A stretch of DNA of 11,529 nucleotides from a virus. Lineage: Duplodnaviria > Heunggongvirae > Uroviricota > Caudoviricetes. Location: positions 1 to 11,529 of the IMG/VR virus record IMGVR_UViG_2534681833_000007; one strand, given 5' to 3'. Of this stretch, positions 1 to 11,529 are shown piece by piece (within the stretch, counting starts at the first letter, position 1; each line of letters starts with the position of its first letter). The notes below the pieces were generated by a model that was not told where the DNA came from, searched no databases, and saw only the letters and a list, made by a program, of their open reading frames with translations. The position numbers and the translations under genes were made by a program.

Positions 1-904
1 ACAGCGCCCATTTGTCCACATCCGCCGCACCAAGACGTTTACCCATGCCGTAGCGCGGGTGGGTCAGCATATCCCACAGACACCAGGCCATGTTATTGCT
101 GTATGCCGGTTTAAACGTTCCGTCCCAGATACCGCTGTATTGCCGCGTCTGCGGGTTATAGTTCGACGGCACCTGCAGAATACGCCCGCGCAGATGATAA
201 TTACGGCTCACCTGCTGGCTGCCGAACTGCTCCGAATCCACCTGCACGCCGACCAGTGCCGTATTCGGGTAGCACTGTTTCACATCGATGATTTCGGTGT
301 ATGACGACCAGAGCGTTTTGTTCTGCAGCTGGTCTGTGGTGCTGTCCGGCGTCATCCTGCGCATCCGGATATTAAACGGGCGCGGCGGCAGGTTATCCAC
401 CACCACCGAGGCCAGATACTGCGAGGTGGTTTTGCCCTTAATGGTGATGTCTTTTTCCGTCACCCAGCCACCGTTACGTTGTATCTGAACCAGCAGGCGG
501 ACTTCCGATGGATTCCTGTCCCCCTTTGAGGTGGTTTCCACCAGTGCCTGCACACCGAAGGTAAAGCGCAGACGGTCGATGTTTGCCGACGTGATGGTGC
601 GGGTGATCGGCGTGTCATATTTCACTTCCGTACCCAGCACCGTCTCGGAGCCGGAGGATTCAAATCCCTCCGGCGGTGTCTGCTCCTGCTCGCCTGCCCG
701 GAACACCACCGTGACGCCGGAGATATTGGTATTCCCCTCGCTGTCCAGCACCGGCGTACTGTTCAGCAGCACGCTTTTTAATCCATCCACCGGACCTTCA
801 ACCGGACCTTCGCTGATGGCATCAATCACACTCAGCAACTGCGTGGACTTCAGGTTGTCCTTCGCTTCGCGCGGGGTATGCCCCTTACTGCTGCCTTTAC
901 CCAT
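1..904 (-). CDS. J: Host specificity / central tail fibre protein J (lambda gpJ-like), N-terminal 301 codons; 3' end lies beyond window start
   Basis: Minus-strand ATG at 904..902 (plus-strand 'cat'), translation MGKGSSKGHTPREAKDNLKSTQLLSVIDAISEGPVEGPVDGLKS... stays open to position 1 and matches my recollection of the lambda gpJ N-terminus almost residue for residue. GAGGA immediately upstream of the ATG. Not in the ORF track because no stop falls inside the window. Confidence 0.9.
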   Translation of the reverse strand, partial: MGKGSSKGHTPREAKDNLKSTQLLSVIDAISEGPVEGPVDGLKSVLLNSTPVLDSEGNTNISGVTVVFRAGEQEQTPPEGFESSGSETVLGTEVKYDTPITRTITSANIDRLRFTFGVQALVETTSKGDRNPSEVRLLVQIQRNGGWVTEKDITIKGKTTSQYLASVVVDNLPPRPFNIRMRRMTPDSTTDQLQNKTLWSSYTEIIDVKQCYPNTALVGVQVDSEQFGSQQVSRNYHLRGRILQVPSNYNPQTRQYSGIWDGTFKPAYSNNMAWCLWDMLTHPRYGMGKRLGAADVDKWAL

Positions 905-925
905 TCCTCACGCTCCATAAACGAC

Positions 926-946
926 AAAACCGCCCGGAGGCGGTTT
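926..946 (-). terminator. Terminator-like hairpin in the I-J intergenic gap (8-bp stem AAACCGCC/GGCGGTTT, 4-nt loop, then U-rich UUUUGUCGUUU on the minus-strand RNA)
   Basis: Perfect inverted repeat 927-934 / 939-946 seen directly in the sequence, between the I stop (965-967) and the J start (904). Function not demonstrated. Confidence 0.35.
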
Positions 947-964
947 CACATAAAACATTTTTCA

Positions 965-1612
965 TCAGCGACCAATCACCACAACCTGACCACCATCACC
1001 TTCATCTGCCGTGCTGATCTCCTGAGATACCACCCGCGACCCCACACGCATTTCACCGTACAGAACGGGCAGAACATTGCCCTGGGCAACCATGTTATCC
1101 AGTGACGAGAAATACGTGTTCTGTTTGCCGTTATCTGTACTGGCTGCCGTGGGCGTCCTGGCTTTCGGTGCCAGCATCTGCGCCACACCACCCAGGATCA
1201 TACTGGCCCCTGCTGCATACATACCCGATACAGCCGCGGCCCCTAGCCAGCCCACAGGGTTCCACCATGCCACCGCAATCAGCGCCGCACCCAGCACCGC
1301 CTGAAACACACCGCCACTTTTGGCCCCCTCCAGACGCGGAACGATGTGGATCACGGCACCATTTGCCAGCGGCTCATTAAGACGGGCAGACAATTCGGTT
1401 TCACCTGCATCACGCCCGGCAATCCGTACCTGATACCAGCCGTCACTCAGTTTCTGACGAAACGCCGGGATCTGCATGGCCAGCGCCCGGATGGCTTCGG
1501 CCCCCGTTTTCACACGAAGGTCGATGCGGCGGCCAAATCGTTGTAAATTCCCGTAAAGGCAGATGCGTGCCATGCCCGGTGACGCCAGAGGGAGTGTGTG
1601 CGTCGCTGCCAT
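965..1612 (-). CDS. I: Tail assembly protein I (lambda gpI-like)
   Basis: 215-aa ORF starting MAATHTLPLASPGMARICLYG... and ending ...GDGGQVVVIGR, matching recalled lambda gpI. ATG at 1612. Overlaps the 3' end of K by about 100 nt, as in lambda. Confidence 0.9.
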   Translation of the reverse strand: MAATHTLPLASPGMARICLYGNLQRFGRRIDLRVKTGAEAIRALAMQIPAFRQKLSDGWYQVRIAGRDAGETELSARLNEPLANGAVIHIVPRLEGAKSGGVFQAVLGAALIAVAWWNPVGWLGAAAVSGMYAAGASMILGGVAQMLAPKARTPTAASTDNGKQNTYFSSLDNMVAQGNVLPVLYGEMRVGSRVVSQEISTADEGDGGQVVVIGR

Positions 1613-2253
1613 TTGTCGGTATACCTCTCTCGTTTGCTCAGTTGTTCAGGAATATGGTGCAGCAGCTCGCCGTCGCCGCAGTAAATGGCGGCATGATTCG
1701 GCACCGATGAACCAAAACAGCACAGCAGCACATCGCCCGGCTGCGCCTCTGTCAGTGCGACACGGTAAAAACTAGTCGCCTCCATATTGTCAAGATAGAG
1801 ATTCTGGCCGTTACGCCACCAGTCATCCCCGCGATAAAAATCCGGCATCTCAATTTCCGCCAGATGGTATGCATCCCGGAACAGCGTGTAACAGTCCGTC
1901 ACCCCGTGCTCAAAGCGCCGCCCGGTAAGATGTGGCACACAGCGGAACTTGTGAATCGCCCCCCGGCAGACCAGCCACCACGGCAAATCACTCTGCACCT
2001 GCAGCCGCCTGTCGACCTCACTCAGCCAGGGCAGACCACCGGGGTGGCTGTGGACCAGTGCCACAACCTCCCCCTGCATCTCTGCCTGCAGCCAGTCCTC
2101 CGGCGACATCCGGAAATACGCCTCCGGCTCACCGGAGATATTCACGCAGGGAAAATATCTGTCCCCCTCCGGCGTTCTCACCACGAAGCCGCACGACTCC
2201 GCTGGCGCACATGGCCGGGCGTGCGCCAGAATCGCTGATTCTGTCTCTGTCAT
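1510..2253 (-). CDS. K: Tail tip assembly protein K (lambda gpK-like; MPN/JAMM plus NlpC/P60 domains)
   Basis: In-frame ATG at 2253, 5 nt after the L stop, gives 247 aa beginning MTETESAILAHARPCAPAESCGF... JAMM signature HSHPGGLPWLSEVD present; later Cys/His consistent with NlpC/P60. The track ORF (start 2328) begins at a GTG inside L and is probably too long; an internal ATG at 2109 would give the shorter 199-aa form. Confidence 0.85.
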   Translation of the reverse strand: MTETESAILAHARPCAPAESCGFVVRTPEGDRYFPCVNISGEPEAYFRMSPEDWLQAEMQGEVVALVHSHPGGLPWLSEVDRRLQVQSDLPWWLVCRGAIHKFRCVPHLTGRRFEHGVTDCYTLFRDAYHLAEIEMPDFYRGDDWWRNGQNLYLDNMEATSFYRVALTEAQPGDVLLCCFGSSVPNHAAIYCGDGELLHHIPEQLSKRERYTDKWQRRTHSLWRHRAWHASAFTGIYNDLAAASTFV

Positions 2254-2257
2254 GGGT

Positions 2258-2956
2258 TTACTGCGAAAGTTTGTTAATGGAAAGGTAGCCGCCAAAATTG
2301 CCGACGTTATTGCGGAACTTGCAACCACTCAGGCATTTGCTGCATTTATCCTTCGTGATATCGGACGTTGGCTGGTCATATTCATCCGCGACCGCCGGGC
2401 CATCATAACCGCACTCATCGCCGCGGTAGATCCAGGTGCAGGTGTTGGCCAGCATGATGCGCCCCGGAAAAACAGCACCATCCGTTTCCGTCGGTGTGGA
2501 CAGCACAAAAGAGGCACTGACCGCGCTCAGTTCGCTGCACTGTTCGATGCGCCAGCGGCTGATCACCTCCTGCTCCGGATCGGCGTCACTGTTTCCGTTG
2601 ACGAAGTTCACCGCATCCAGAAAACGGGCGTAAACCTTACGCCGGACCACCGTTCCGCCGACCAGACTCTGCAGATCTTCCGCCATCCCGGTGACCATGC
2701 CGTACAGATTAGAGACTTTAAGCGTTGGCCTTGCACTGGCTCCTTTGCCGTTCATCTCAAATCCGCTTCCCTGAATGGGATAAGCCTGATACTGCCGCCC
2801 CTGCCAGGTGACTGGTTCACCTTTTTCGTTCTGCTCATTACAGAAGAAATAACGATCTCCGCCGACTTCTGTCAGATCAATTTCCCAGAGCACGACCAGC
2901 GCGGATTGCTCCGTTTTAGTGCACTCATTGAGTGTTTCCTGCTGTATATCCTGCAT
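2258..2956 (-). CDS. L: Minor tail protein L (lambda gpL-like)
   Basis: 232-aa ORF MQDIQQETLNECTKTEQSALVVLWEIDLTEVGG...FGGYLSINKLSQ, near-identical to recalled lambda gpL. Its ATG (2956..2954) overlaps the M stop as TGATG. Confidence 0.92.
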   Translation of the reverse strand: MQDIQQETLNECTKTEQSALVVLWEIDLTEVGGDRYFFCNEQNEKGEPVTWQGRQYQAYPIQGSGFEMNGKGASARPTLKVSNLYGMVTGMAEDLQSLVGGTVVRRKVYARFLDAVNFVNGNSDADPEQEVISRWRIEQCSELSAVSASFVLSTPTETDGAVFPGRIMLANTCTWIYRGDECGYDGPAVADEYDQPTSDITKDKCSKCLSGCKFRNNVGNFGGYLSINKLSQ

Positions 2957-3312
2957 CAGTGAGTGACCTCTTCAAAGGTACAGTTAAAATCGGTATACAT
3001 GGTATTATCCGAAATGCTCCACTCCCTGCAGACAACCCGGACAGTCCTGTTGTGTTTTGGCGGACGCCACAAAAAAGCACGAATCCCGGCATGACGGGAT
3101 AAAAAACTGTCCAGCGCGGCACGGGAATATTCATCTGTGACACGAAATACCGGTTTAAACGTTTTCAGATCCGCATTCAGACCACCAGCCCGTCGCTGTT
3201 CATATCCGTCACCAAACTTTACCGTAATAACTGATGGCTTTCGTGTCGTCTCCATCCCCTCACGGGGGATCCAGTTAAAAACTTCAGGCTCAGGCACTGT
3301 ACAATCCTCCAT
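2956..3312 (-). CDS. M: Minor tail protein M (divergent lambda gpM homologue)
   Basis: Conserved core ...KFGDGY...AGLNA.LKT...SFL...FLW.PP... aligns with recalled lambda gpM at roughly 35-40 percent identity. Start placed at ATG 3312 (118 aa) because the lambda N-terminus (KTFRWKVKPGMD) aligns with EVFNWIPREGME upstream of the alternative ATG at 3255. The track start at 3342 is a TTG. Confidence 0.75.
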   Translation of the reverse strand: MEDCTVPEPEVFNWIPREGMETTRKPSVITVKFGDGYEQRRAGGLNADLKTFKPVFRVTDEYSRAALDSFLSRHAGIRAFLWRPPKHNRTVRVVCREWSISDNTMYTDFNCTFEEVTH

Positions 3313-6300
3313 CCCGACGCGATGACTGCATAATTGACACAACCCTGCTGTCGATCAGATCCACCAGTCCCCTGGCTGAGCGCGCATCTATCTCGCCATT
3401 GCTCCCTTGATTCTGAATGCTGATGTGATACACGGGAGAATAAACAAATCCACCGCCACCATTCACATTTCCAATGGCCCTGACCCCAAGAGAGCCGTCC
3501 GCTGCCCGTGTCAGTGGCATGATTGCTTCAGGCCCGGCCTCGCCCATCAACCCGGCACCTTTCGCAAAAGCAAAATACGTCGGTGTATCCACAATAGTGT
3601 TACTGTAAGCACTCAGATTTGCCGATGTGTAAACACCACCTTTTGCGTTTGCCACTGCCCCCGAAATCCATCCGCCGACCGTACCAAGCCACCCTCCGGC
3701 ACCGGAGAGTGATTTCAGTCCGTTAACAATGGCTGCATTCATCAGAATTTTTGAAACTTCCCGGAGAACTGAACTCCCCCAGTTCCTCCAGTCCACAACA
3801 TTCCCGGCCAGTGCATCGGAAATATTTGATACCAGCCCGTCCATCGTGGAAACGACAGCATCTGCCGCCTGTGAAGCATAATCGGTGGCACTGTCTGCCC
3901 AGTTGGTCAGTCCCTCCTGGAGTCCGGCATTCCAGTTATTACGTAAAGCATCGGCCTTTGCATAATAATCCTGCTGATCGCTGAGACGCTCTTCCAGATA
4001 TTTTTTATTCAGTTCTTTCTCCTGTTTCCACAGAGCTTCTTCAATTTCTCCGGCCTGATACTGTCTCAGCAGCTCGTTATTTTTCTGCTCAAACGCCTGC
4101 CGGATACTCCACATTTCCTGGAGTCGTTCACGCATCCGTGAGCCTTCACCATATCCCAGCAACTGCGCTTCGTCAGATGCCCGGGCACTGGCATTACTGT
4201 CCGCCAGACTGCTCTCATACGCAGCAAGCTGCTCACGAATCTTTTTCTGGTCGATGAGTGCTGCATTCTGCAAAAGCGTTTTTTTCTGCGCTTCTGACAG
4301 GGTTGATAATTCGCCCTGACTGACCTGATATTTCATCTTAGCCAGTTCAGTATTCTGCCCTGCCAGTGCTATTTGTTCTTTTTGCTGTTTAATCAGCCGT
4401 TTATAAATATCTTCTGTTTTTTCCGCTTCGGTCTTTTTATGCGCTTTGGGTTTATTTGCCTGGTTATTTCGCCAGGCATCCAGTGAGTTATTGATATAAT
4501 TCTGTCTGGCTGTCTGATACGCCTCTCCCACAAAGCCGAGATCATCCGCAGCATAACCCAGGCGGGCACGCTCACGGGCTTCCCCCTTCAGGCGGGACAG
4601 AGCCAGTTCGCGCTCACTGTTATTCAGTGCGGCCTGCTGTTTATCATCCAGGGTTGCCTGTGGTAGCCGTAACGGTACATTCACCAGCCCCTGTCGCTGC
4701 TGAAGTAATTCATTACCGAGCCCGAGAAGGCGATTAAACTCGGTATGCTGCCCATTCATGATCAACAGGGACTGATACGCTTTGTTTTGTTCCGCGGCCT
4801 GTTGACGGATCAACGCCACCCGTCGCTCCTCCAGCCCGGCAAGCACATCCTGAATGGATTGCGCTTTGCCCTGCATTTGTGTGAGACGGGACTGTTCAAC
4901 TGCCAGTTGATTTGTTGCTTCTGCAAGCCCTTCTGTGACAGTTTTTACCGACGTCATGTGGTTAATCATAAAACCGTTATCGGTTGTCCAGCCCGGGTTT
5001 GCCAGCACATACTGATAGCCAGCAATTTTTTCCTGTAAGGATTTAATCTTACTTTTCTGCTCGTCAATTAACCTGTTTTGCTCATCAAGTGCCTGCCGCG
5101 TCTTTTCCTCATTATCTGACGCTTCAGGAAGCGACATTGCCGACGTTTTCTGGCGAATTTCGTCGATTGTTGCGGCATACTGGCGTGCAGATTCTCTGGC
5201 CTGCTCCTGATTCTGATACATCGTGTACCAGGCCGTCGCCCCCAGCATGACGAGTCCCGGCACACCACCAACCAACCCCAGCGCACCACTTAACAGACGA
5301 CTCCCCACTGACGTGACAGTATTCAGCGTTGTCTGTGCCGCTGTTCTGGCCGCAATATTACGGGTAAGTGACGCCTGGGCAGCTGTCAGCTTCGCTTCTG
5401 CTGCGGCCTGCCTTTCGGTACCGCGAGCAGCAACAACCGCCTGTTGCGCACGATAAACCGCCGCACGCGCCCTGGCGGTTGCTATCTGTGTCCCCCGAAG
5501 TTGCGCTTCAGCAAGAGCCACTTCTTTTCTGGCTGCAGTAATTAATCCGGCAGTTGCAGATCCAGCAGACGACGCCATATTGCCAAAATATCGGGCTACC
5601 CCGACGGCAACCAGTGCGCCAGCTGCAGCAGCCACGGTATCCATATTGTCTGCAACACCATTCAACACCCCGGTGAGTGTCTTTGTCACTCCGCTTGCCT
5701 CGTTCGCACCACCAACCCAGGCCATAAAGGCGTTTTCAACTTTGGTTGCAGAGGATGAAACAGTATCAGGCATTGCTGCATATTCATCACGCAACGCCCC
5801 AAGCTGACTAATCAGTGCAGGAACAACCTTATCGGCGGTCAGTTTTCCGTTATCCGCCATGGCCTTCAGATCCTTACGGGCAACACCCATTCCCGCAGCC
5901 AGCGCACGAATAACACGATCGCCGTTCTCATTCACAGAGTTAAATTCTTCACCGCGCAGCACTCCCTGCGCCAGTGCCTGACTGAACTGCGTGATCACCG
6001 AACTGGCTTCTGCTGTACTGGCACCGGATAATTTCAGGCCCGTAGAGATCGCCTCGGTGACTTTCAGTACCTCCTCAGAACTGTAGCCATACTCCCGCAT
6101 GGAAGCTGCAGAGCGGGCAAAAAGGCTGGCGTTATCAGAAAACGCCGTTCCCGTTCTCTGGCTGATTGCCATTAATTCACGTTGTGATACCTGAAAATCA
6201 TCACTGGACTGTGAAGCCTGCTTCAGACGGGCATTTACTGAATTCCACTCATCGGCGAGAGAAATAAGATGACCGGTAGCAAAAGCTCCGGCAAATGCCC

Positions 6301-6523
6301 CCGCCATATTCAGTGCCGAAGATTTAGCTATATTTATCTGATCCGTCACTTCTGCCAGTGCACGCCGCATTTCACGGGATGCAGCAGCGGACTGCCGGCC
6401 TCCGTTCTGCATGGTACGGTAGTAATCCTGCCCCATACGCGAAGCCCGGGAGATCTCTGACTGGAATGACCGGGAATTTGCCGAGATTTTAATAATCAGT
6501 TCACGTAATGTCGCCACACTCAT
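3290..6523 (-). CDS. Tail tape measure protein (1077 aa)
   Basis: Very long ORF placed between the chaperone pair and M; Ala/Gln-rich helical central region typical of tape measure proteins, Gly-rich hydrophobic C-terminal segment. ATG at 6523 preceded by GGAGA. Longer than lambda gpH (853 aa as I recall) and not obviously co-linear with it. Confidence 0.9.
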   Translation of the reverse strand: MSVATLRELIIKISANSRSFQSEISRASRMGQDYYRTMQNGGRQSAAASREMRRALAEVTDQINIAKSSALNMAGAFAGAFATGHLISLADEWNSVNARLKQASQSSDDFQVSQRELMAISQRTGTAFSDNASLFARSAASMREYGYSSEEVLKVTEAISTGLKLSGASTAEASSVITQFSQALAQGVLRGEEFNSVNENGDRVIRALAAGMGVARKDLKAMADNGKLTADKVVPALISQLGALRDEYAAMPDTVSSSATKVENAFMAWVGGANEASGVTKTLTGVLNGVADNMDTVAAAAGALVAVGVARYFGNMASSAGSATAGLITAARKEVALAEAQLRGTQIATARARAAVYRAQQAVVAARGTERQAAAEAKLTAAQASLTRNIAARTAAQTTLNTVTSVGSRLLSGALGLVGGVPGLVMLGATAWYTMYQNQEQARESARQYAATIDEIRQKTSAMSLPEASDNEEKTRQALDEQNRLIDEQKSKIKSLQEKIAGYQYVLANPGWTTDNGFMINHMTSVKTVTEGLAEATNQLAVEQSRLTQMQGKAQSIQDVLAGLEERRVALIRQQAAEQNKAYQSLLIMNGQHTEFNRLLGLGNELLQQRQGLVNVPLRLPQATLDDKQQAALNNSERELALSRLKGEARERARLGYAADDLGFVGEAYQTARQNYINNSLDAWRNNQANKPKAHKKTEAEKTEDIYKRLIKQQKEQIALAGQNTELAKMKYQVSQGELSTLSEAQKKTLLQNAALIDQKKIREQLAAYESSLADSNASARASDEAQLLGYGEGSRMRERLQEMWSIRQAFEQKNNELLRQYQAGEIEEALWKQEKELNKKYLEERLSDQQDYYAKADALRNNWNAGLQEGLTNWADSATDYASQAADAVVSTMDGLVSNISDALAGNVVDWRNWGSSVLREVSKILMNAAIVNGLKSLSGAGGWLGTVGGWISGAVANAKGGVYTSANLSAYSNTIVDTPTYFAFAKGAGLMGEAGPEAIMPLTRAADGSLGVRAIGNVNGGGGFVYSPVYHISIQNQGSNGEIDARSARGLVDLIDSRVVSIMQSSRRDGGLYSA

Positions 6524-6533
6524 TCTCCGGACG

Positions 6534-6554
6534 AAAAAAACCGCCGAAGCGGTT
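6534..6554 (-). terminator. Terminator-like hairpin just upstream of the tape measure start (stem AACCGC/GCGGUU, UUCG loop, then U5 on the minus-strand RNA)
   Basis: Inverted repeat 6539-6544 / 6549-6554 with loop 6545-6548 and a 7-A run at 6534-6540 on the plus strand, lying in the 40-nt gap between the T stop (6563) and the tape measure ATG (6523). Confidence 0.3.
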
Positions 6555-6562
6555 ATGTTGAC

Positions 6563-7236
6563 TCACTGAGACACTATTAAAAGCGCGTTTTCCAGTCCGG
6601 CAAATGGATCTGAGACGCCTTCTGTCTGCTCTTGTTCCCACTGAAGAAGCGCATCATTCAGTGGGACTTTGACACCCTGCGCACCGTAAACCGCAGAAAC
6701 TATCTGGGCAGCCCGGATATCAGCCCGCTCGTCACCCAGCGGGCTGAACCTGTCAAATTCTGCCCACATCATGATTTCTGATGCGGACATTTCCCGGCGT
6801 AACTCTGACAATGTGCGCCCCATCCTGAGCGCCAGCATCATCAGAAAACGCATCCCCGGAAGCGCTACTTTTTTTTAACCTCGCCGGCATCACTGATCAG
6901 TTCCAGAGACTGCCGAAGAAGCCGCGCATGCACCGGGCCATACACGGCAATCACCTGTTCACGATCATCCTCTGAAAATACAGGTTGCAGTCCGGTATCA
7001 CACAGAACATCAATGAATAGTTCAACATCTGCCTCCAGATTTCGGCGGGCGCGCTCCGCAACGGATAACGGTGTCTCATCATCTTTTGCTTTAACGATCT
7101 CCTGCCAGCGCAACCAGGCTTCTGCAGAAGGTTCCCGTAATACAACCGTTGCCCCTTCCCATTCAGGCACATCAACAGTTTTATGGCGAAACCCCGACAT
7201 CGTTGCCAGTGCCAGATTGCGGATATTTTTAGTCAT
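6563..7236 (-). CDS. Tail assembly chaperone G-T fusion, made by -1 programmed ribosomal frameshift near the 3' end of G
   Basis: The 6563-6853 ORF (T part) is in the -1 frame relative to G (codon phase checked: G codons start at coordinate 1 mod 3, T codons at 2 mod 3). G ends ...GAG GTT AAA AAA AAG TAG, so a slip on A AAA AAG reads on as ...KK-VALPG-MRFLMMLAL... This is the conserved G/GT arrangement found immediately upstream of tape measure genes. Confidence 0.75.
6865..7236 (-). CDS. Tail assembly chaperone (lambda gpG-equivalent)
   Basis: ORF directly upstream of the tape measure gene, ending in the slippery site. Start chosen at ATG 7236 (GAGGAT about 7 nt upstream); an alternative ATG at 7251 overlaps the major tail protein stop (TAATG) and would add MRIDV. 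Confidence 0.8.
   Translation of the reverse strand: MTKNIRNLALATMSGFRHKTVDVPEWEGATVVLREPSAEAWLRWQEIVKAKDDETPLSVAERARRNLEADVELFIDVLCDTGLQPVFSEDDREQVIAVYGPVHARLLRQSLELISDAGEVKKK
6868..6874 (-). promoter_or_regulatory. -1 frameshift slippery heptamer A AAA AAG (G to G-T)
   Basis: Plus-strand C + T8 run at 6868-6876; on the minus strand the heptamer is in X XXY YYZ phase with the G frame, and the G stop TAG follows immediately. Confidence 0.7.
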
Positions 7237-7250
7237 CACATCTATCCTCA

Positions 7251-7955
7251 TTAACTGACGGTAACAGTGCAGGAAGTGGAGGTCACCTTGTTAACAGGGC
7301 TTGCTGAATCAGAAATCTCGCAGGTATACGCACCGGCATCACCTGATGCTGCTGATGCCTTACTGAATGTTGCCGCCGTCTGTCCGGAAACAGGAGAACT
7401 ACCTTTCTTCCAGACATAAGAATAAGGCGGCACACCACCGGCAGCCTCAACCACCATTTCGAGTTTCGCTCCGGCAGAAACCTGCAGCGTGCTGTTTAAA
7501 TCGACCTTCACTTTCAGCGGCTCTGTCGTCAGCACAGGTTTACCTTTCAGGCGCAGGGAAAACGTTGCAGCCACAACACCATTAGTTCCTGCAGACCAGG
7601 TATGCTGACGCACCTCTGCCATAAAGGTAAATCCGTTGCCTGACGGAAAAATAACTTTAAAGCCATACGTGGTGTCATTGTCATAGGCACTGCGCAACGC
7701 GTTCTGGGCAGCATTGAGGTAAAAGTTGCCTGACATGGAAATCTCTGACGCGGCACCAAGGCCGTTAATATTTTCCTGCTCAACAGAACACAGCGTGGTG
7801 ACATCAATATCCTGCTTTTGTCCTGCGGTAAACTGCACCTCTTTGATTGTACAGCTCAGGCCAAGATAGCTGGCAGAATCCAGGGTTTCTGCTGTTACCG
7901 GTGCAGACGAAATCATAATTTTCGTCAGTTGCGAACGCTCAAAATTAGAGGACAT
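7251..7955 (-). CDS. Major tail (tube) protein with C-terminal Ig-like domain
   Basis: Sits in the position of lambda V (after the terminator-like gene, before the chaperone pair). 234 aa from ATG 7955 with AGGAGA 6 nt upstream. C-terminal ~90 aa (...GGVPPYSYVWKKGSS...GAYTCEISD...CTVTVS) has an Ig-fold-like pattern. Not recognisably lambda gpV by sequence. The track start at 8006 reads through the hairpin and U-tract and is probably wrong. Confidence 0.8.
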   Translation of the reverse strand: MSSNFERSQLTKIMISSAPVTAETLDSASYLGLSCTIKEVQFTAGQKQDIDVTTLCSVEQENINGLGAASEISMSGNFYLNAAQNALRSAYDNDTTYGFKVIFPSGNGFTFMAEVRQHTWSAGTNGVVAATFSLRLKGKPVLTTEPLKVKVDLNSTLQVSAGAKLEMVVEAAGGVPPYSYVWKKGSSPVSGQTAATFSKASAASGDAGAYTCEISDSASPVNKVTSTSCTVTVS

Positions 7956-7969
7956 ACTCGTCTCCTGAA

Positions 7970-7994
7970 AATAAAAAACCCGCCAGCGGCGGGT
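7970..7994 (-). terminator. Intrinsic-terminator-like hairpin upstream of the major tail protein gene (stem CCCGCC/GGCGGG, then UUUUUUAUUUU on the minus-strand RNA)
   Basis: All-GC 6-bp stem 7979-7984 / 7988-7993 (one further A-U pair 7978/7994), 3-nt loop, followed on the minus strand by a U-run (plus-strand A-run 7971-7978). Lies between the upstream gene stop (8015) and the RBS/ATG at 7955. Confidence 0.4.
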
Positions 7995-8014
7995 GGGTAA
8001 AATCATTAACGACC

Positions 8015-8359
8015 TCAGGCTATTACCTGAAATTCAAGCGTGGCTCTGCTCAGACGGGAATCAGGATCATAACCCTGAGTTTTAGAAATAACGGAGGGTG
8101 CAAGTTGCCTTACCGCATCAAGCGCCTGCTCACGGATATCATCTGCGTCATCAGGTACTGTTGCCCAGACATCGATCTGCACGGTAATTCTGGATTCAGC
8201 CTGACCATCAAGCACATCAGACGCAGTGTCAGACACCACAGAAAATACCAGCCATGGCGGAGATACCGCAGGCTTTCCCTCCGTCAGCGGGACCACATAA
8301 GGATAAACCTGTCCTCCGGCCAGTTGAGACAGCAGGGAATACAGTGTGGTCTCTCTCAT
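8015..8359 (-). CDS. Tail terminator / tail-component protein (lambda U-position; family not identified from sequence)
   Basis: 114-aa ORF. Its ATG at 8359 overlaps the upstream stop (ATGA). Called by position between the gp10-like gene and the major tail protein gene. Confidence 0.7.
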   Translation of the reverse strand: MRETTLYSLLSQLAGGQVYPYVVPLTEGKPAVSPPWLVFSVVSDTASDVLDGQAESRITVQIDVWATVPDDADDIREQALDAVRQLAPSVISKTQGYDPDSRLSRATLEFQVIA

Positions 8360-8802
8360 TTACTTAAGACCTCATCAATAGCCTGATTCATTCGCTGTAT
8401 GGCAATCTGTGCTGCCAGTTCCTCTGTCGTATCGAAAGCCGGGCGAATGAACGGATGCGCGGGCATGTTTATCGTTCCCAGCTCCACAAAGCGCCAGTAA
8501 AACGCATTTCGGGGATCACTGGCTTTCATGCTGTTATCACTGTTTCCGGTTCGCAGGTTCCGTCCACGAATGTGGACACCCGAGATAATTTCCCCCCGAC
8601 GCTTTGAACGCTGAGTGAGAACAACCACATTTTTCTTCAGTTTCCCGGTTCGCTCCGGCGCACGTTCAACAACTGCATCCCGCATAACTTCAGCACCGGC
8701 ACGGGTGGCATCGCGCAGTACCTTATTGTTTTCTGCCCTGCTGAGCGTCTCCAGATCCCGTGCAATATCCGCCAGACCTGAAAAATCAAGACTGAAATCC
8801 AT
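8356..8802 (-). CDS. Tail completion / head-tail joining protein, HK97 gp10-like (lambda Z-position)
   Basis: 148 aa from ATG 8802 (AAGGGGA about 7 nt upstream; the track start at 8805 is a GTG). Contains ...MPAHPFIRPAFD..., which I associate with the HK97 gp10 family. Its ATG overlaps the stop of the truncated upstream remnant (TGATG). Confidence 0.75.
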   Translation of the reverse strand: MDFSLDFSGLADIARDLETLSRAENNKVLRDATRAGAEVMRDAVVERAPERTGKLKKNVVVLTQRSKRRGEIISGVHIRGRNLRTGNSDNSMKASDPRNAFYWRFVELGTINMPAHPFIRPAFDTTEELAAQIAIQRMNQAIDEVLSK

Positions 8803-8922
8803 CACACATTCCCCTTCTGAGAACAGAGTATCTCAAGCCGTGTGGCACGAGCATCCGGTATCGGCGGACCGTCTATACTCAGAATCGCGCCTTTGAATGC
8901 ACCAGTCAGCACTTTCAGACAT
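8802..8922 (-). pseudogene. 3' remnant (39 codons plus stop) of a phage morphogenesis gene whose 5' part is replaced by IS2
   Basis: Minus-strand frame is open from the IS2 boundary (8922) to a TGA at 8804..8802, translating CLKVLTGAFKGAILSIDGPPIPDARATRLEILCSQKGNV*. The stop overlaps the next gene's ATG in the coupled fashion seen for the rest of the operon. No start codon or N-terminal part exists on this side of IS2. Confidence 0.5.
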
Positions 8923-8963
8923 TAGACTGGCCCCCTGAATCTCCAGACAACCAATATCACTTA
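8923..8963 (+). repeat. IS2 left terminal inverted repeat (IRL)
   Basis: Imperfect inverted repeat with 10213-10253; shared blocks GCCCC...TCCAGACA...TATCACTTA seen directly. Confidence 0.8.
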
Positions 8964-9013
8964 TTTAAGTGATAGTCTTAATACTAGTTTTTAGACTAGT
9001 CATTGGAGAGCAG

Positions 9014-9379
9014 ATGATTGATGTCTTAGGACCGGAGAAACGCAGACGGCGTACTACACAGGAAAAGATCGCTATTGTTCAGCAGAGTTTTGAACCGGGA
9101 ATGACAGTCTCCCTTGTTGCCCGGCAACACGGTGTGGCAGCCAGCCAGTTATTTCTCTGGCGCAAGCAATACCAGGAGGGAAGTCTTACTGCTGTGGCCG
9201 CAGGAGAACAGGTCGTTCCTGCCTCTGAACTTGCTGCCGCCATGAAGCAGATTAAAGAACTCCAGCGCCTGCTCGGCAAAAAAACGATGGAAAATGAACT
9301 CCTTAAAGAAGCCGTTGAATATGGGCGTGCAAAAAAGTGGATAGCGCACGCGCCCTTATTGCCCGGGGATGGGGAGTAA
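9014..9379 (+). CDS. insC: IS2 OrfA (InsC), HTH transposase-regulator component
   Basis: ATG 9014 with GGAGAG upstream; 121 aa [56 protein letters not shown]... matches recalled IS2 InsC. The track start at 8969 is an upstream extension. Confidence 0.92.
9331..9337 (+). promoter_or_regulatory. IS2 orfA-orfB -1 frameshift heptamer A AAA AAG
   Basis: AAAAAAG at 9331-9337 is in X XXY YYZ phase with orfA (codons GCA AAA AAG); orfB is in the -1 frame and begins at this point. Confidence 0.7.
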
Positions 9380-10242
9380 GCTTAGTCAGCCGTTGTCTCC
9401 GGGTGTCGCGTGCGCAGTTGCACGTCATTCTCAGACGAACCGATGACTGGAAAGATGGTCGCCGCAGCCGTCACTCAGATGATACGGATGTGCTTCTCCG
9501 TATACACCATGTTATCGGAGAGCTGCCCACATATGGTTATCGTCGGGTATGGGCGCTGCTTCGCAGACAGGCCGAACTTGATGGTATGCCTGCGATCAAT
9601 GCCAAACGTATTTACCGGATCATGCGCCAGAATGCGCTGTTGCTTGAGCGAAAACCCGCTGTACCGCCATCGAAACGGGCACATACCGGCAGAGTGGCTG
9701 TGAAAGAAAGTAATCAGCGATGGTGCTCTGACGGGTTCGAGTTCCGCTGTGATAACGGAGAAAAACTGCGAGTCACGTTCGCGCTGGACTGCTGTGACCG
9801 TGAGGCACTGCACTGGGCGGTCACTACGGGCGGCTTCAACAGTGAAACAGTACAGGACGTCATGCTGGGAGCGGTGGAACGCCGTTTCGGCAACGAGCTT
9901 CCGGCGTCTCCAGTAGAGTGGCTGACGGATAATGGTTCATGCTACCGGGCTAATGAAACACGGCAGTTTGCCCGGATGTTGGGGCTTGAACCGAAGAACA
10001 CGGCGGTGCGGAGTCCGGAGAGTAACGGCATAGCAGAGAGCTTCGTGAAAACGATAAAGCGTGACTACATCAGTGTCATGCCCAAACCAGACGGGTTAAC
10101 GGCAGCAAAGAACCTTGCAGAGGCATTCGAGCATTATAACGAATGGCATCCGCATAGTGCACTGGGTTATCGCTCGCCACGGGAATATCTACGGCAGCAA
10201 GCCAGTAATGGGTTAAGTGATAACAGGTGTCTGGAAATATAG
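9337..10242 (+). CDS. insD: IS2 OrfB (InsD), DDE transposase catalytic part; normally expressed as an OrfAB fusion by -1 frameshift
   Basis: 301-aa ORF (GTG at 9337) ...[29 protein letters not shown]...[18 protein letters not shown]..., matching recalled IS2 InsD closely; appears full length. Confidence 0.9.
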
Positions 10243-10253
10243 GGGCAAATCCA
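10213..10253 (+). repeat. IS2 right terminal inverted repeat (IRR)
   Basis: The reverse complement TGGATTTGCCCCTATATTTCCAGACACCTGTTATCACTTAA pairs with IRL. Confidence 0.8.
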
Positions 10254-10651
10254 GGCAAATCCTTTACGTTACTCTCTGATGACTTCTTATATTTATAATA
10301 CCAATCAGACAGCCTTATCCCATCGGTGATATCAGTCTCCTCCTCGCCAGGAACGGGCTGACTCACTGTAACCACCTCCGAAAACAACTCTGCAATTATC
10401 AGAACGCTAGTTTTCCCCTTGTCTCACGAAAGTCCTCCCTCCTTTATCGCGCGTGCGTGCGGAAGCATCTTTTCGCAACAACCACCCGGGATTCCGCTAC
10501 GGCTCTGCCATCGCAATCCCCCCGTTTATCTCCGGACAGCCACATTCCCGATTATTTTTTACGTTTCTCCCCGGTTGTTATGCCAGTGAAGGTGGCGCGC
10601 TGTTTTCATGACCACACCGGCTGGTTTAACAACATCCGGAGGAACATTCTC

Positions 10652-10858
10652 ATGGCTACCCCTGTTTCGCTGATGGATGACCAGATGGTCGACATGGCGT
10701 TTATCACTCAACTTACCGGCTTAACCGATAAGTGGTTTTACAAACTCATCAAAGATGGGGGCTTTCCTGCCCCCATCAAAATGGGGCGCAGCTCCCGCTG
10801 GCTGAAAAGTGAAGTGGAAGCCTGGCTGCAGGCGCGTATTGCACAGCCCCGTCCGTAA
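10652..10858 (+). CDS. AlpA-family phage/island regulatory protein (small HTH, excisionase-like)
   Basis: ATG 10652 with GGAGG 8 nt upstream; 68 aa MATPVSLMDDQMVDMAFITQLTGLTDKWFYKLIKDGGFPAPIKMGRSSRWLKSEVEAWLQARIAQPRP. Size and motif resemble AlpA-like proteins of P4/CP4-57-type integrative elements. The track ORF from 10457 is an upstream extension with no RBS. Confidence 0.75.
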   Translation: MATPVSLMDDQMVDMAFITQLTGLTDKWFYKLIKDGGFPAPIKMGRSSRWLKSEVEAWLQARIAQPRP

Positions 10859-10952
10859 TTTCTGACCGTTATCCGTTCACCCGCAGCAGACGTAATCTCC
10901 GGCCTGCCGGCGGCATTCTGCTGCCTGTTATATCCCCGTGAGGAATATGAAA

Positions 10953-11529
10953 ATGAAACAACAGTATCAGACCCGCTACGAATGGCTCCACGAAAGCTAC
11001 CAGAAATGGCTGACCGGCTTCACCCGGCACGCCGTATCCTGGGGCGTGTGTCATCCGAATATCTACTACTTCCATAATCTGACGCCCGGTTGGGTGTCAT
11101 TCAATGGTGAAAAACCGGAGATTGCCATCGTACCCCAGAGCCTGCACCGGCTGATTTATGGCCCTGACAAACGGGCCACGCCGCCCCTGGATGATGATCT
11201 GATAGTGAATTTATGCACCAGTGAACATCTGCTGGTTCATCATCCGATGCTGGAAGGCATTCTCCTGTCTGAATGTGAACGTCTGAGGCAGCGTTCTCTG
11301 GCAAATAAACTGATCAGCCTCTTCCGTCAGTTTGGTGGCACGGAGTTGCGCCTCAAACTGGTCTGGCTTTGCTGGCTTGATTTAATGACCGGAAACAGCC
11401 TTGACGACTGGACAGAGAATCTGAAACGGAAATCAGAAAAAGAGCTGGAGGAATGGATCATCAACCGTCAGAAGCAGAGCGCAGCACTGACGGATCTGAT
11501 GGATCAGTACGTGCTCCTGTCATACCGCA
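10953..11529 (+). CDS. Hypothetical protein, 5' part only (at least 192 codons); continues beyond window end
   Basis: Open frame with no stop from ATG 10947 / ATG 10953 to the window end; GAGGA at 10940-10944 gives better spacing to 10953. Translation MK(MK)QQYQTRYEWLHESYQKWLTGFTRHAVSWGVCHPNIYYFHNL... Not in the ORF track because it has no stop in the window. I do not recognise the family. Confidence 0.55.
   Translation, partial: MKQQYQTRYEWLHESYQKWLTGFTRHAVSWGVCHPNIYYFHNLTPGWVSFNGEKPEIAIVPQSLHRLIYGPDKRATPPLDDDLIVNLCTSEHLLVHHPMLEGILLSECERLRQRSLANKLISLFRQFGGTELRLKLVWLCWLDLMTGNSLDDWTENLKRKSEKELEEWIINRQKQSAALTDLMDQYVLLSYR

Follow-up and report, generated by a model that had tools for sequence, protein, structure and literature searches.

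A lambda-type tail tip joined to an HK97-type tail shaft at the M/L gene boundary of an Escherichia coli prophage

The tail tip genes and the step at M/L

The window analyzed here, a stretch of 11,529 nucleotides (nt) comprising positions 1 to 11,529 of IMG/VR record IMGVR_UViG_2534681833_000007, carries the tail module of a lambdoid Escherichia coli prophage. Our subject is the boundary between its tail genes M and L, where nucleotide similarity to phage lambda begins abruptly. All of the tail genes in the window lie on the minus strand. The gene for the central tail fibre or tip protein J leaves the window at position 1, and its N-terminal 301 codons occupy positions 2-904 (feature 1..904); the J genes of relatives are 3396-3480 nt long (1131-1159 amino acids, aa). 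In lambda, the C-terminus of J is responsible for receptor binding and for LamB specificity. Upstream of J lie I (965-1612), which encodes a tail tip protein of 215 aa (Pfam Lambda_tail_I, E = 6e-23), K (1510-2253), which encodes a tail tip assembly protein of 247 aa (Pfam Prok-JAB and NLPC_P60), and L (2258-2956), which encodes the tail tip hub protein of 232 aa (Pfam Phage_tail_L, E = 1.6e-99; PDB 8iyk_L, E = 1.5e-150). The longest open reading frame (ORF) for K reaches 2328; the start at 2253 is the one used in RefSeq relatives, in which the gene is annotated as a 744-nt "C40 family peptidase". The family domains of the L-K-I-J set are therefore all present: Phage_tail_L, JAB with NlpC/P60, Lambda_tail_I, and the J N-terminus, recognized by 98.7% identity to its lambda counterpart. 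M (2956-3312 from an ATG at 3312, with the ORF staying open to a TTG at 3342) encodes a distal tail protein of 118 aa whose match to Pfam Phage_min_tail (PF05939, E = 1.2e-31) exceeds the gathering score and which also matches PDB 8iyk_M (E = 5e-24). M sits between the tape-measure gene H and L, overlapping the stop codon of the former and the start codon of the latter. The tape-measure gene (3290-6523) encodes 1077 aa with matches to Pfam TMP_3, Phage_HK97_TLTM (E = 1.3e-93) and Tape_meas_lam_C. Plus-strand ORFs inside it, such as 3407-3712 and 4745-5038, were taken as spurious because they overlap this well-supported gene. Throughout the tail module, Pfam and PHROG assignments of gene roles agree.

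To compare this region with lambda, we aligned the reverse-complemented window with lambda 5000-20000 by blastn and followed identity in sliding 60-nt intervals. A single, collinear high-scoring segment pair (HSP) was recovered, in which window 1-2976 corresponds to lambda 13409-16408 with 90.0% identity over 3008 columns (E = 0). Upstream of 2976 this search returned no nucleotide match to lambda. Consistent with this result, sliding identity was about 0.40-0.50, and at its widest 0.25-0.65, upstream of ~2980, a range that reflects background and a slight rise at the FGDGY motif conserved in M, then 0.75-0.80 at 2966-2850 and mostly 0.90-1.00 beyond (0.88-1.00 in J). The step is abrupt, from ~0.45 to 0.77 inside one interval at 2976-2956, with 0.92 reached by ~2870. 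The proteins on the tip side are close to those of lambda, with 98.7% aa identity for J (residues 1-301), 93.5% for L, 92.5% for K (over 199 aa) and 77.6% for I. On the other side, identity was 40.4% for M, 26.5% for the tape measure, and that in the C-terminal 359 aa only, and 23% for the major tail protein relative to lambda V; the G, T, terminator and gp10-like proteins had no significant lambda protein match. A first-pass annotation of the window, made from the sequence without database searches, had proposed a junction at or near the M/L overlap (2956), and the end of the lambda HSP and the step in the profile both fall there. Its estimate of 35-40% identity for M, its tape measure of 1077 aa rather than 853 aa, and its view that the major tail protein and joining genes are not lambda-like agree with our measurements, as does its expectation that identity would not be uniform from M to J and that L, K, I and J would be closer to lambda than M is. 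The interval that it assigned to the feature, 2900-6523, covers the divergent side (M and the tape measure); the lambda-like part is 1-2976.

The mosaic junction relative to lambda thus occupies 2956-2976 on the minus strand and comprises the stop/start overlap of the two genes together with the final 7 codons of M, at the edge of nucleotide homology. The sequence ACTGATGCAGGATAT at this junction is conserved in the window, in lambda and in the Stx phage BP-4795. Similarity reaches 20 nt into M (2957-2976), over the codons of its conserved C-terminus FE(E/Q)V, and within this overhang lies a purine-rich GAGG/AGGTGG, ~10 nt upstream of the L ATG, that we read as the probable ribosome-binding site of L. 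The overhang need not mark the point of crossover.

Downstream of the step, similarity to lambda is uneven. Identity is no more than 0.73-0.93 over the first ~260 nt of L and attains at least 0.98 only from ~2696 on; across L and K the values range from 0.73 to 1.00. Within I, a divergent patch at ~1190-1437 (minus strand) has 0.38-0.67 nucleotide identity to lambda and a 24-nt length difference, with flanks of at least 0.9. Accordingly, the earlier description of L, K, I and J as near-identical to lambda with scattered differences fits J, is generous for L and K, and overlooks the patch in I. Two alleles of this patch exist, and they are distributed independently of the shaft: among the IMG/VR loci described below, one with a window-type shaft has the lambda-type I (96%; L014), and two with a lambda shaft have the window-type I (95-98%; L049 and L067), such that both alleles are found on both shaft backgrounds. 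By this distribution, the I patch is a small, independent mosaic unit within a tip gene.

The K alignment drew attention to the annotation of lambda itself. Homology between the window and lambda in K reaches upstream of the annotated lambda K start at 14276, with tblastn aligning 276 residues from lambda 14057, and the JAB domain of window K (1510-2328) lies in this part upstream of that start (lambda 14057-14275; L001). The 199-aa annotation of lambda K may therefore be N-terminally short.

Gene relationships on the two sides of the boundary

A step in identity could arise by recombination or by unequal rates of evolution. To distinguish these possibilities we examined a third phage, BP-4795 (NC_004813), which is collinear with the window at 55-84% aa identity and shows no step at M/L relative to it (M 64.6%, L 77.6%, J 79%). 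Relative to lambda, BP-4795 displays the same step as the window, from 45.5% in M to 76.7% in L. As a fourth member we used L047, one of a sample of 80 IMG/VR loci encoding M relatives that were scored against the window, lambda and BP-4795 proteins; these loci are not phylogenetically independent. For M, identity was 64.6% between the window and BP-4795 and 80% between lambda and L047, versus 40% between the window and lambda and 45.5% between BP-4795 and lambda. For L, the pairs were exchanged: 93.5% between the window and lambda and 93% between BP-4795 and L047, versus 77.6% between the window and BP-4795 and 76.7% between lambda and BP-4795. Thus, in groupings drawn from identities rather than from bootstrapped trees, the window falls with BP-4795 for M and with lambda for L, K and J. 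A three-way nucleotide profile of the window, lambda and BP-4795 flips exactly at 2957.

Because the gene relationships on the two sides conflict, the step reflects recombination and not unequal evolutionary rates. An account by rate alone, in which L, K, I and J evolve far more slowly than M, the tape measure and the other genes of the shaft and the step is only apparent, has in its favor that M is also somewhat less conserved than L between the window and BP-4795 (65% versus 78%). However, rate differences would scale relationships rather than make them incongruent, and the quartets, in which window M is nearer BP-4795 and window L nearer lambda, already refute this account. Moreover, G, T and the terminator lack a detectable lambda homologue yet are 51-64% identical to HK97, and the change takes place within ~20 nt. 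We consider an explanation by rate alone hardly credible. Collectively, these data support a genuine recombination boundary at the M stop/L start overlap, 2956-2976.

We next asked which shafts and tips occur together. All four combinations were found among the IMG/VR loci and reference phages. An HK97-type shaft with a window/BP-type M is followed by a lambda-allele tip in the window and in L011-L022 and by a BP/Stx-allele tip in BP-4795 and L023-L032. A lambda-type shaft and M are followed by a lambda-allele tip in lambda, L046 and L085-L090 and by a BP/Stx-allele tip in L047, L055 and L060. In the last three loci, identity to lambda is 77-80% in V, H and M, and identity to BP-4795 is 91-99% in L, K, I and J. 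A further locus, L040, has a third type of M (50% identical to the window and 42% to lambda) beside an L of the lambda type (94%). Wherever a locus has a lambda-type M, its nucleotide match to the window stops at 2956-2976, and this holds for an L of 70% identity as it does for one of 95%. The joint itself varies by lineage: M and L are connected by a stop/start overlap (ACTGATG), by an 8-12-nt spacer, or by an inserted hairpin followed by a T-run. The last form was seen in two loci (L030 and L045), in which the DNA directly upstream of the L ATG is a GC-rich hairpin and then a T-run (for example, GGGGCGCATTGCGCCCCTTTTTT) rather than the end of M; its make-up suggests a terminator or an inserted element placed between M and L at this same joint.

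Judged by these comparisons, M/L is a recurrent and old module boundary, and it is not private to the window prophage since BP-4795-type Stx phages show the same step relative to lambda. Both tip alleles occur behind both shaft types, and the direction of transfer therefore cannot be inferred; lambda is as much a "recombinant" as the window prophage. A simpler history, and the literal reading of the first-pass proposal, would be that a single, recent illegitimate (non-homologous) recombination, exactly at the M/L overlap, gave the immediate ancestor of the window prophage lambda's own tip on a foreign shaft. The position of the step exactly at a gene boundary and the 98.7% identity of J to lambda J are what such an event would produce. 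However, near-identity to lambda is not reached in the first ~260 nt of L, the lambda-type tip allele also stands behind the third M type in L040, and the direction such a history presupposes is not inferable. BP-4795, in addition, has the same M/L step relative to lambda at a far lower tip identity (77%), and the joint therefore predates the similarity between the window and lambda tips. On balance, a single recent event is quite unlikely. The first-pass proposal of a lambda-type tip coupled to a different shaft is upheld in substance, with the refinements that the shaft is HK97-like, that no direction can be assigned, and that the boundary is old and recurrent.

Several points count against a reading of the tip and of the shaft plus M as two exchangeable units. 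M is at times separated from its shaft: in L044 a 93% lambda-type M follows a divergent shaft (V 55% and H 26% identical to lambda), and L057, L072 and L084 have a ~80% lambda-like shaft with an 88-98% lambda-type M. The H/M boundary, or a point within H, is therefore also a joint, and M/L is one of several. In addition, "recurrent" here stands for a handful of independent combinations. Finally, the window copy belongs to a prophage remnant that is unable to make particles alone.

The same junction could in principle have been created in the computer, as an assembly chimera of two prophages in the source genome. E. coli genomes hold several similar prophages (a median of 8 matching places per genome), and the relative CV839-06 has an assembly break inside this very prophage. 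By contrast, the junction segment 2700-3400 was contiguous at at least 80% coverage in 872 of 5,426 complete E. coli genomes and is therefore not an assembly artefact. It is also found in the independently sequenced induced phages vB_EcoS-640R1, PhiR49_2, Evi and phi467, whose tail regions have 96-97% DNA identity to the window. Matching E. coli prophages were counted in 4,082 genomes. We give a chimeric assembly next to no credence.

The HK97-type shaft and the truncated end of the prophage

Upstream of the tape measure, on the same strand, lie the remaining shaft genes. T (6563-6853; Pfam Phage_tail_T) and G (6865-7251; Pfam Phage_TAC_1) encode tail assembly chaperones. A slippery heptamer, A-AAA-AAG, is present at 6868-6874 directly 5' of the stop of G, and reading in the -1 frame leads without a break into the T ORF. 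A -1 frameshift would join the two ORFs in the usual G/GT chaperone arrangement. In a close relative, ETEC1747, the G homologue is annotated as a pseudogene. The major tail (tube) protein (7251-8006; PHROG 158, E = 1e-109) has a C-terminal immunoglobulin-like domain (Pfam Ig_2 and Ig_3), and it is followed by the tail terminator (8015-8359; Pfam Tail_completion_gp17) and by an HK97-gp10-like neck or tail-completion protein (8356-8805; Pfam HK97-gp10_like).

These proteins resemble those of HK97, with aa identities of 79% for the gp10-like protein, 51% for the terminator, 71% for the major tail protein (gp12), 64% for G (gp13) and 64% for T (gp14). The tape measure is 55% identical to HK97 gp16 over its full length (1077 versus 1089 aa) and 77% identical to the BP-4795 protein. 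By these identities, the shaft is HK97-like, with a lambda-type tip attached. Among the upstream relatives that the first-pass annotation had suggested, only HK97 matches. HK022 was discarded as a type of shaft donor, as it shares only a 181-nt stretch toward the 3' end of the tape-measure gene and a 26% match to the gp10-like protein. N15 and phi80 were likewise set aside as relatives of either module, having no nucleotide similarity and tip proteins that are only 28-37% identical; G, T and the terminator had no match in lambda, N15 or phi80.

Similarity to HK97 does not extend to the end of the tape measure. An older junction, relative to HK97 and HK022, lies at 3452-3469 (minus strand), where nucleotide similarity ends ~160 nt before the tape-measure stop codon: the last HK97 HSP spans window 3452-3575 (72.6%), and the sole HK022 HSP spans window 3469-3649 (72.9%, 181 nt). 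HK97 M is 39.5% identical to window M over 76 aa. By nucleotide and protein identity, M and the tape-measure C-terminus make up a segment resembling neither HK97 nor lambda. In their indels, the last ~45 tape-measure residues follow the lambda pattern and lack the 7 residues inserted in HK97 and HK022. We considered whether these residues and M belong to a "lambda clade" and arrived with the tip. The indel pattern fits this idea, but the identities are weak (33% versus 27% by hand count over the 45 residues, and 41% versus 32-34% for M), and we regard it as suggestive only. Elsewhere in the tape measure, identity to HK97 is 86-97% over residues 1-250, 15-40% over residues ~300-700 except for a 61% patch at ~410-460, and 57-79% over residues 680-830; relative to BP-4795 it is 71-100% over residues 1-640, 43-55% over 805-940 and 98% over 957-1012. 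On these profiles, the tape measure is internally mosaic relative to both phages.

The prophage ends within a head-closure gene, of which a 3' remnant is present at 8806-8922 (minus strand); the match to the intact ETEC1747 prophage, at 100% identity, breaks off at 8922. At this point the gene is cut by a complete, 1331-bp copy of the IS3-family insertion sequence IS2 (8923-10253, plus strand), delimited by aligned segments and by features annotated as IS3 family/IS2 transposase. With the intact ETEC1747 gene as reference, the last 121 nt of the head-closure gene remain. IS2 orfA (8969-9379) and orfB (9337-10242) are on the plus strand, and the terminal inverted repeats lie at 8932-8963 and 10214-10245. 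No target-site duplication was found at IS2, the flanking pentamers GACAT and GGCAA being different. Because these pentamers differ, the element, as judged from its flanks, marks a recombinant joint (a rearrangement or deletion) and not a simple insertion. The tail module is therefore part of a prophage remnant without adjacent head genes.

Non-phage DNA follows beyond IS2 (10254-11529). It matches an unrelated island of strain CV839-06 at 99.9% identity and contains a gene for a small helix-turn-helix regulator (~10652-10858, plus strand) and a hypothetical gene that leaves the window end; in CV839-06 the island lies near YfjI-family and Ag43 genes. CV839-06 holds both halves, the tail side and the island side, at 99.9-100%, with its assembly broken inside this prophage, and the IS2-to-tail junction is contiguous in no complete genome of the collection. 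The last base of the "complete" circular record of this strain (NZ_CP025753.1; L091 and L092) lies 55 nt upstream of the prophage's gp10-like gene, and the record resumes within a tape-measure gene, itself truncated, that belongs to a second prophage, similar but oppositely oriented. Repeated prophage or IS2 sequence appears to have led to a mis-closure of the assembly here.

Exchange of tail tips and comparison with known systems

We consider it highly probable that the tail module of this lambdoid E. coli prophage is composed of two exchangeable units, an HK97-type shaft set and a lambda-type tip set. The shaft set would comprise the neck protein, the terminator, the tube protein, the G/GT chaperones and the 1077-aa tape measure, followed by the shaft's own M. 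The tip set, L-K-I-J, would be drawn from a pool that is common to many coliphages and that retains 70-99% nucleotide identity throughout, whereas the shaft-plus-M sets would be of unrelated or barely related types. Since L-K-I-J is homologous among these phages and the shaft-plus-M sets are not, tips and shafts could be re-paired by crossover anywhere inside L-J. Phages and prophages resident in one cell would thus recombine, by homologous or homeologous exchange, within this block and nowhere upstream of it; repeated crossovers would re-pair tips with shafts and leave M/L as the sharp edge of similarity, the original joints being old. The patchy identity in L, K and I (0.73-1.00) is the expected trace of repeated crossovers in a homologous block.

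The combination may work because the M/L boundary matches a structural interface, at which the gpM ring meets the hub of gpL and gpJ. The distal tail protein of lambda, gpM, is a hexamer ring that stacks on the gpV tube by a beta-sandwich face and whose E-loops contact the gpL/gpJ ring electrostatically; the C-terminal helix of gpH lies inside the tip (PMC10721106). By analogy, we infer that M of the window phage likewise forms a hexameric ring, placed between the tube and the L/J hub, and that it would serve as an adaptor linking the two. The tail is also predicted to be longer than that of lambda, with ~40 tube rings if lambda's 32 are scaled by 1077/853 aa.

A stronger proposal is that M/L is the preferred joint at which the tails of coliphage siphoviruses are reassorted, and not just a passive edge of homology. 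Here, a block conserved across M types, GCAGGTGGTGAACTG joined to ATGCAGGATAT in both lambda-type and BP-type M, could serve as a short "linker" in relaxed recombination of the Red/Rad52 type; ACTG joined to ATGCAGGATAT is present in all three M types. If this were true, M would work almost universally as an adaptor through which any L-K-I-J tip could join unrelated shafts, and the joint would offer a defined cut point for host-range engineering. We think this unlikely, and favor the reading of two units re-paired by crossover within the shared tip block.

The comparisons make plain that, among the lambdoid phages of E. coli, the host-recognition tip L-K-I-J passes as one unit between unrelated shafts, at a point that coincides with the interface between the gpM ring and the hub in the lambda cryo-electron microscopy structure. 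The host range of a prophage might then be predicted from its tip alleles and not from whole-genome relatedness, and the boundary suggests where to cut when engineering chimeric tails. Beyond good annotation the finding has little import, and it opens no new question.

The module can be compared with several known systems. The lambda tip (NC_001416 13429-18903; PDB 8iyk) is alike in gene order, gene overlaps, the 60-nt gap between I and J, and Pfam families. By contrast, the central patch of I is replaced, M is 40% identical, and the tape measure is 1077 aa in the window versus 853 aa in lambda, with a distant relationship confined to the C-terminal third; the genes upstream of M do not resemble those of lambda. 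The HK97 shaft (NC_002167 5880-11704) shares gene order, near-equal gene sizes and the predicted -1 G/T frameshift. However, the M, L, K, I and J of HK97 are only 35-40% identical to those of the window, and HK97 has the morons gp15, gp22 and gp23, which the window is without. The long-tailed Stx and lambdoid prophages of the BP-4795 type and the phages 640R1, PhiR49_2, Evi and phi467 have an identical overall layout of HK97-type shaft, M, L-K-I-J, Lom and Stf. BP-4795 itself differs in its tip allele (L 78% and J 79% identical to the window) and its 65% M, and the window copy is distinguished by the IS2 that cuts it; ETEC1747 carries an intact prophage with an HK97-type head and a tail region 99.9% identical to the window, and the SMS-3-5 prophage is another intact relative.

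Literature searches for an explicit prior description of the M/L joint returned only general accounts of mosaicism. In the lambdoid mosaic model, joints lie at gene boundaries and interacting structural genes are transferred together (PMC9836094). The window fits this modular model in its abrupt transition at a gene boundary, its modules of interacting proteins and the varied combinations in which these occur. It shows no difference in kind, and the tail module described here is an ordinary instance of already known lambdoid mosaicism.

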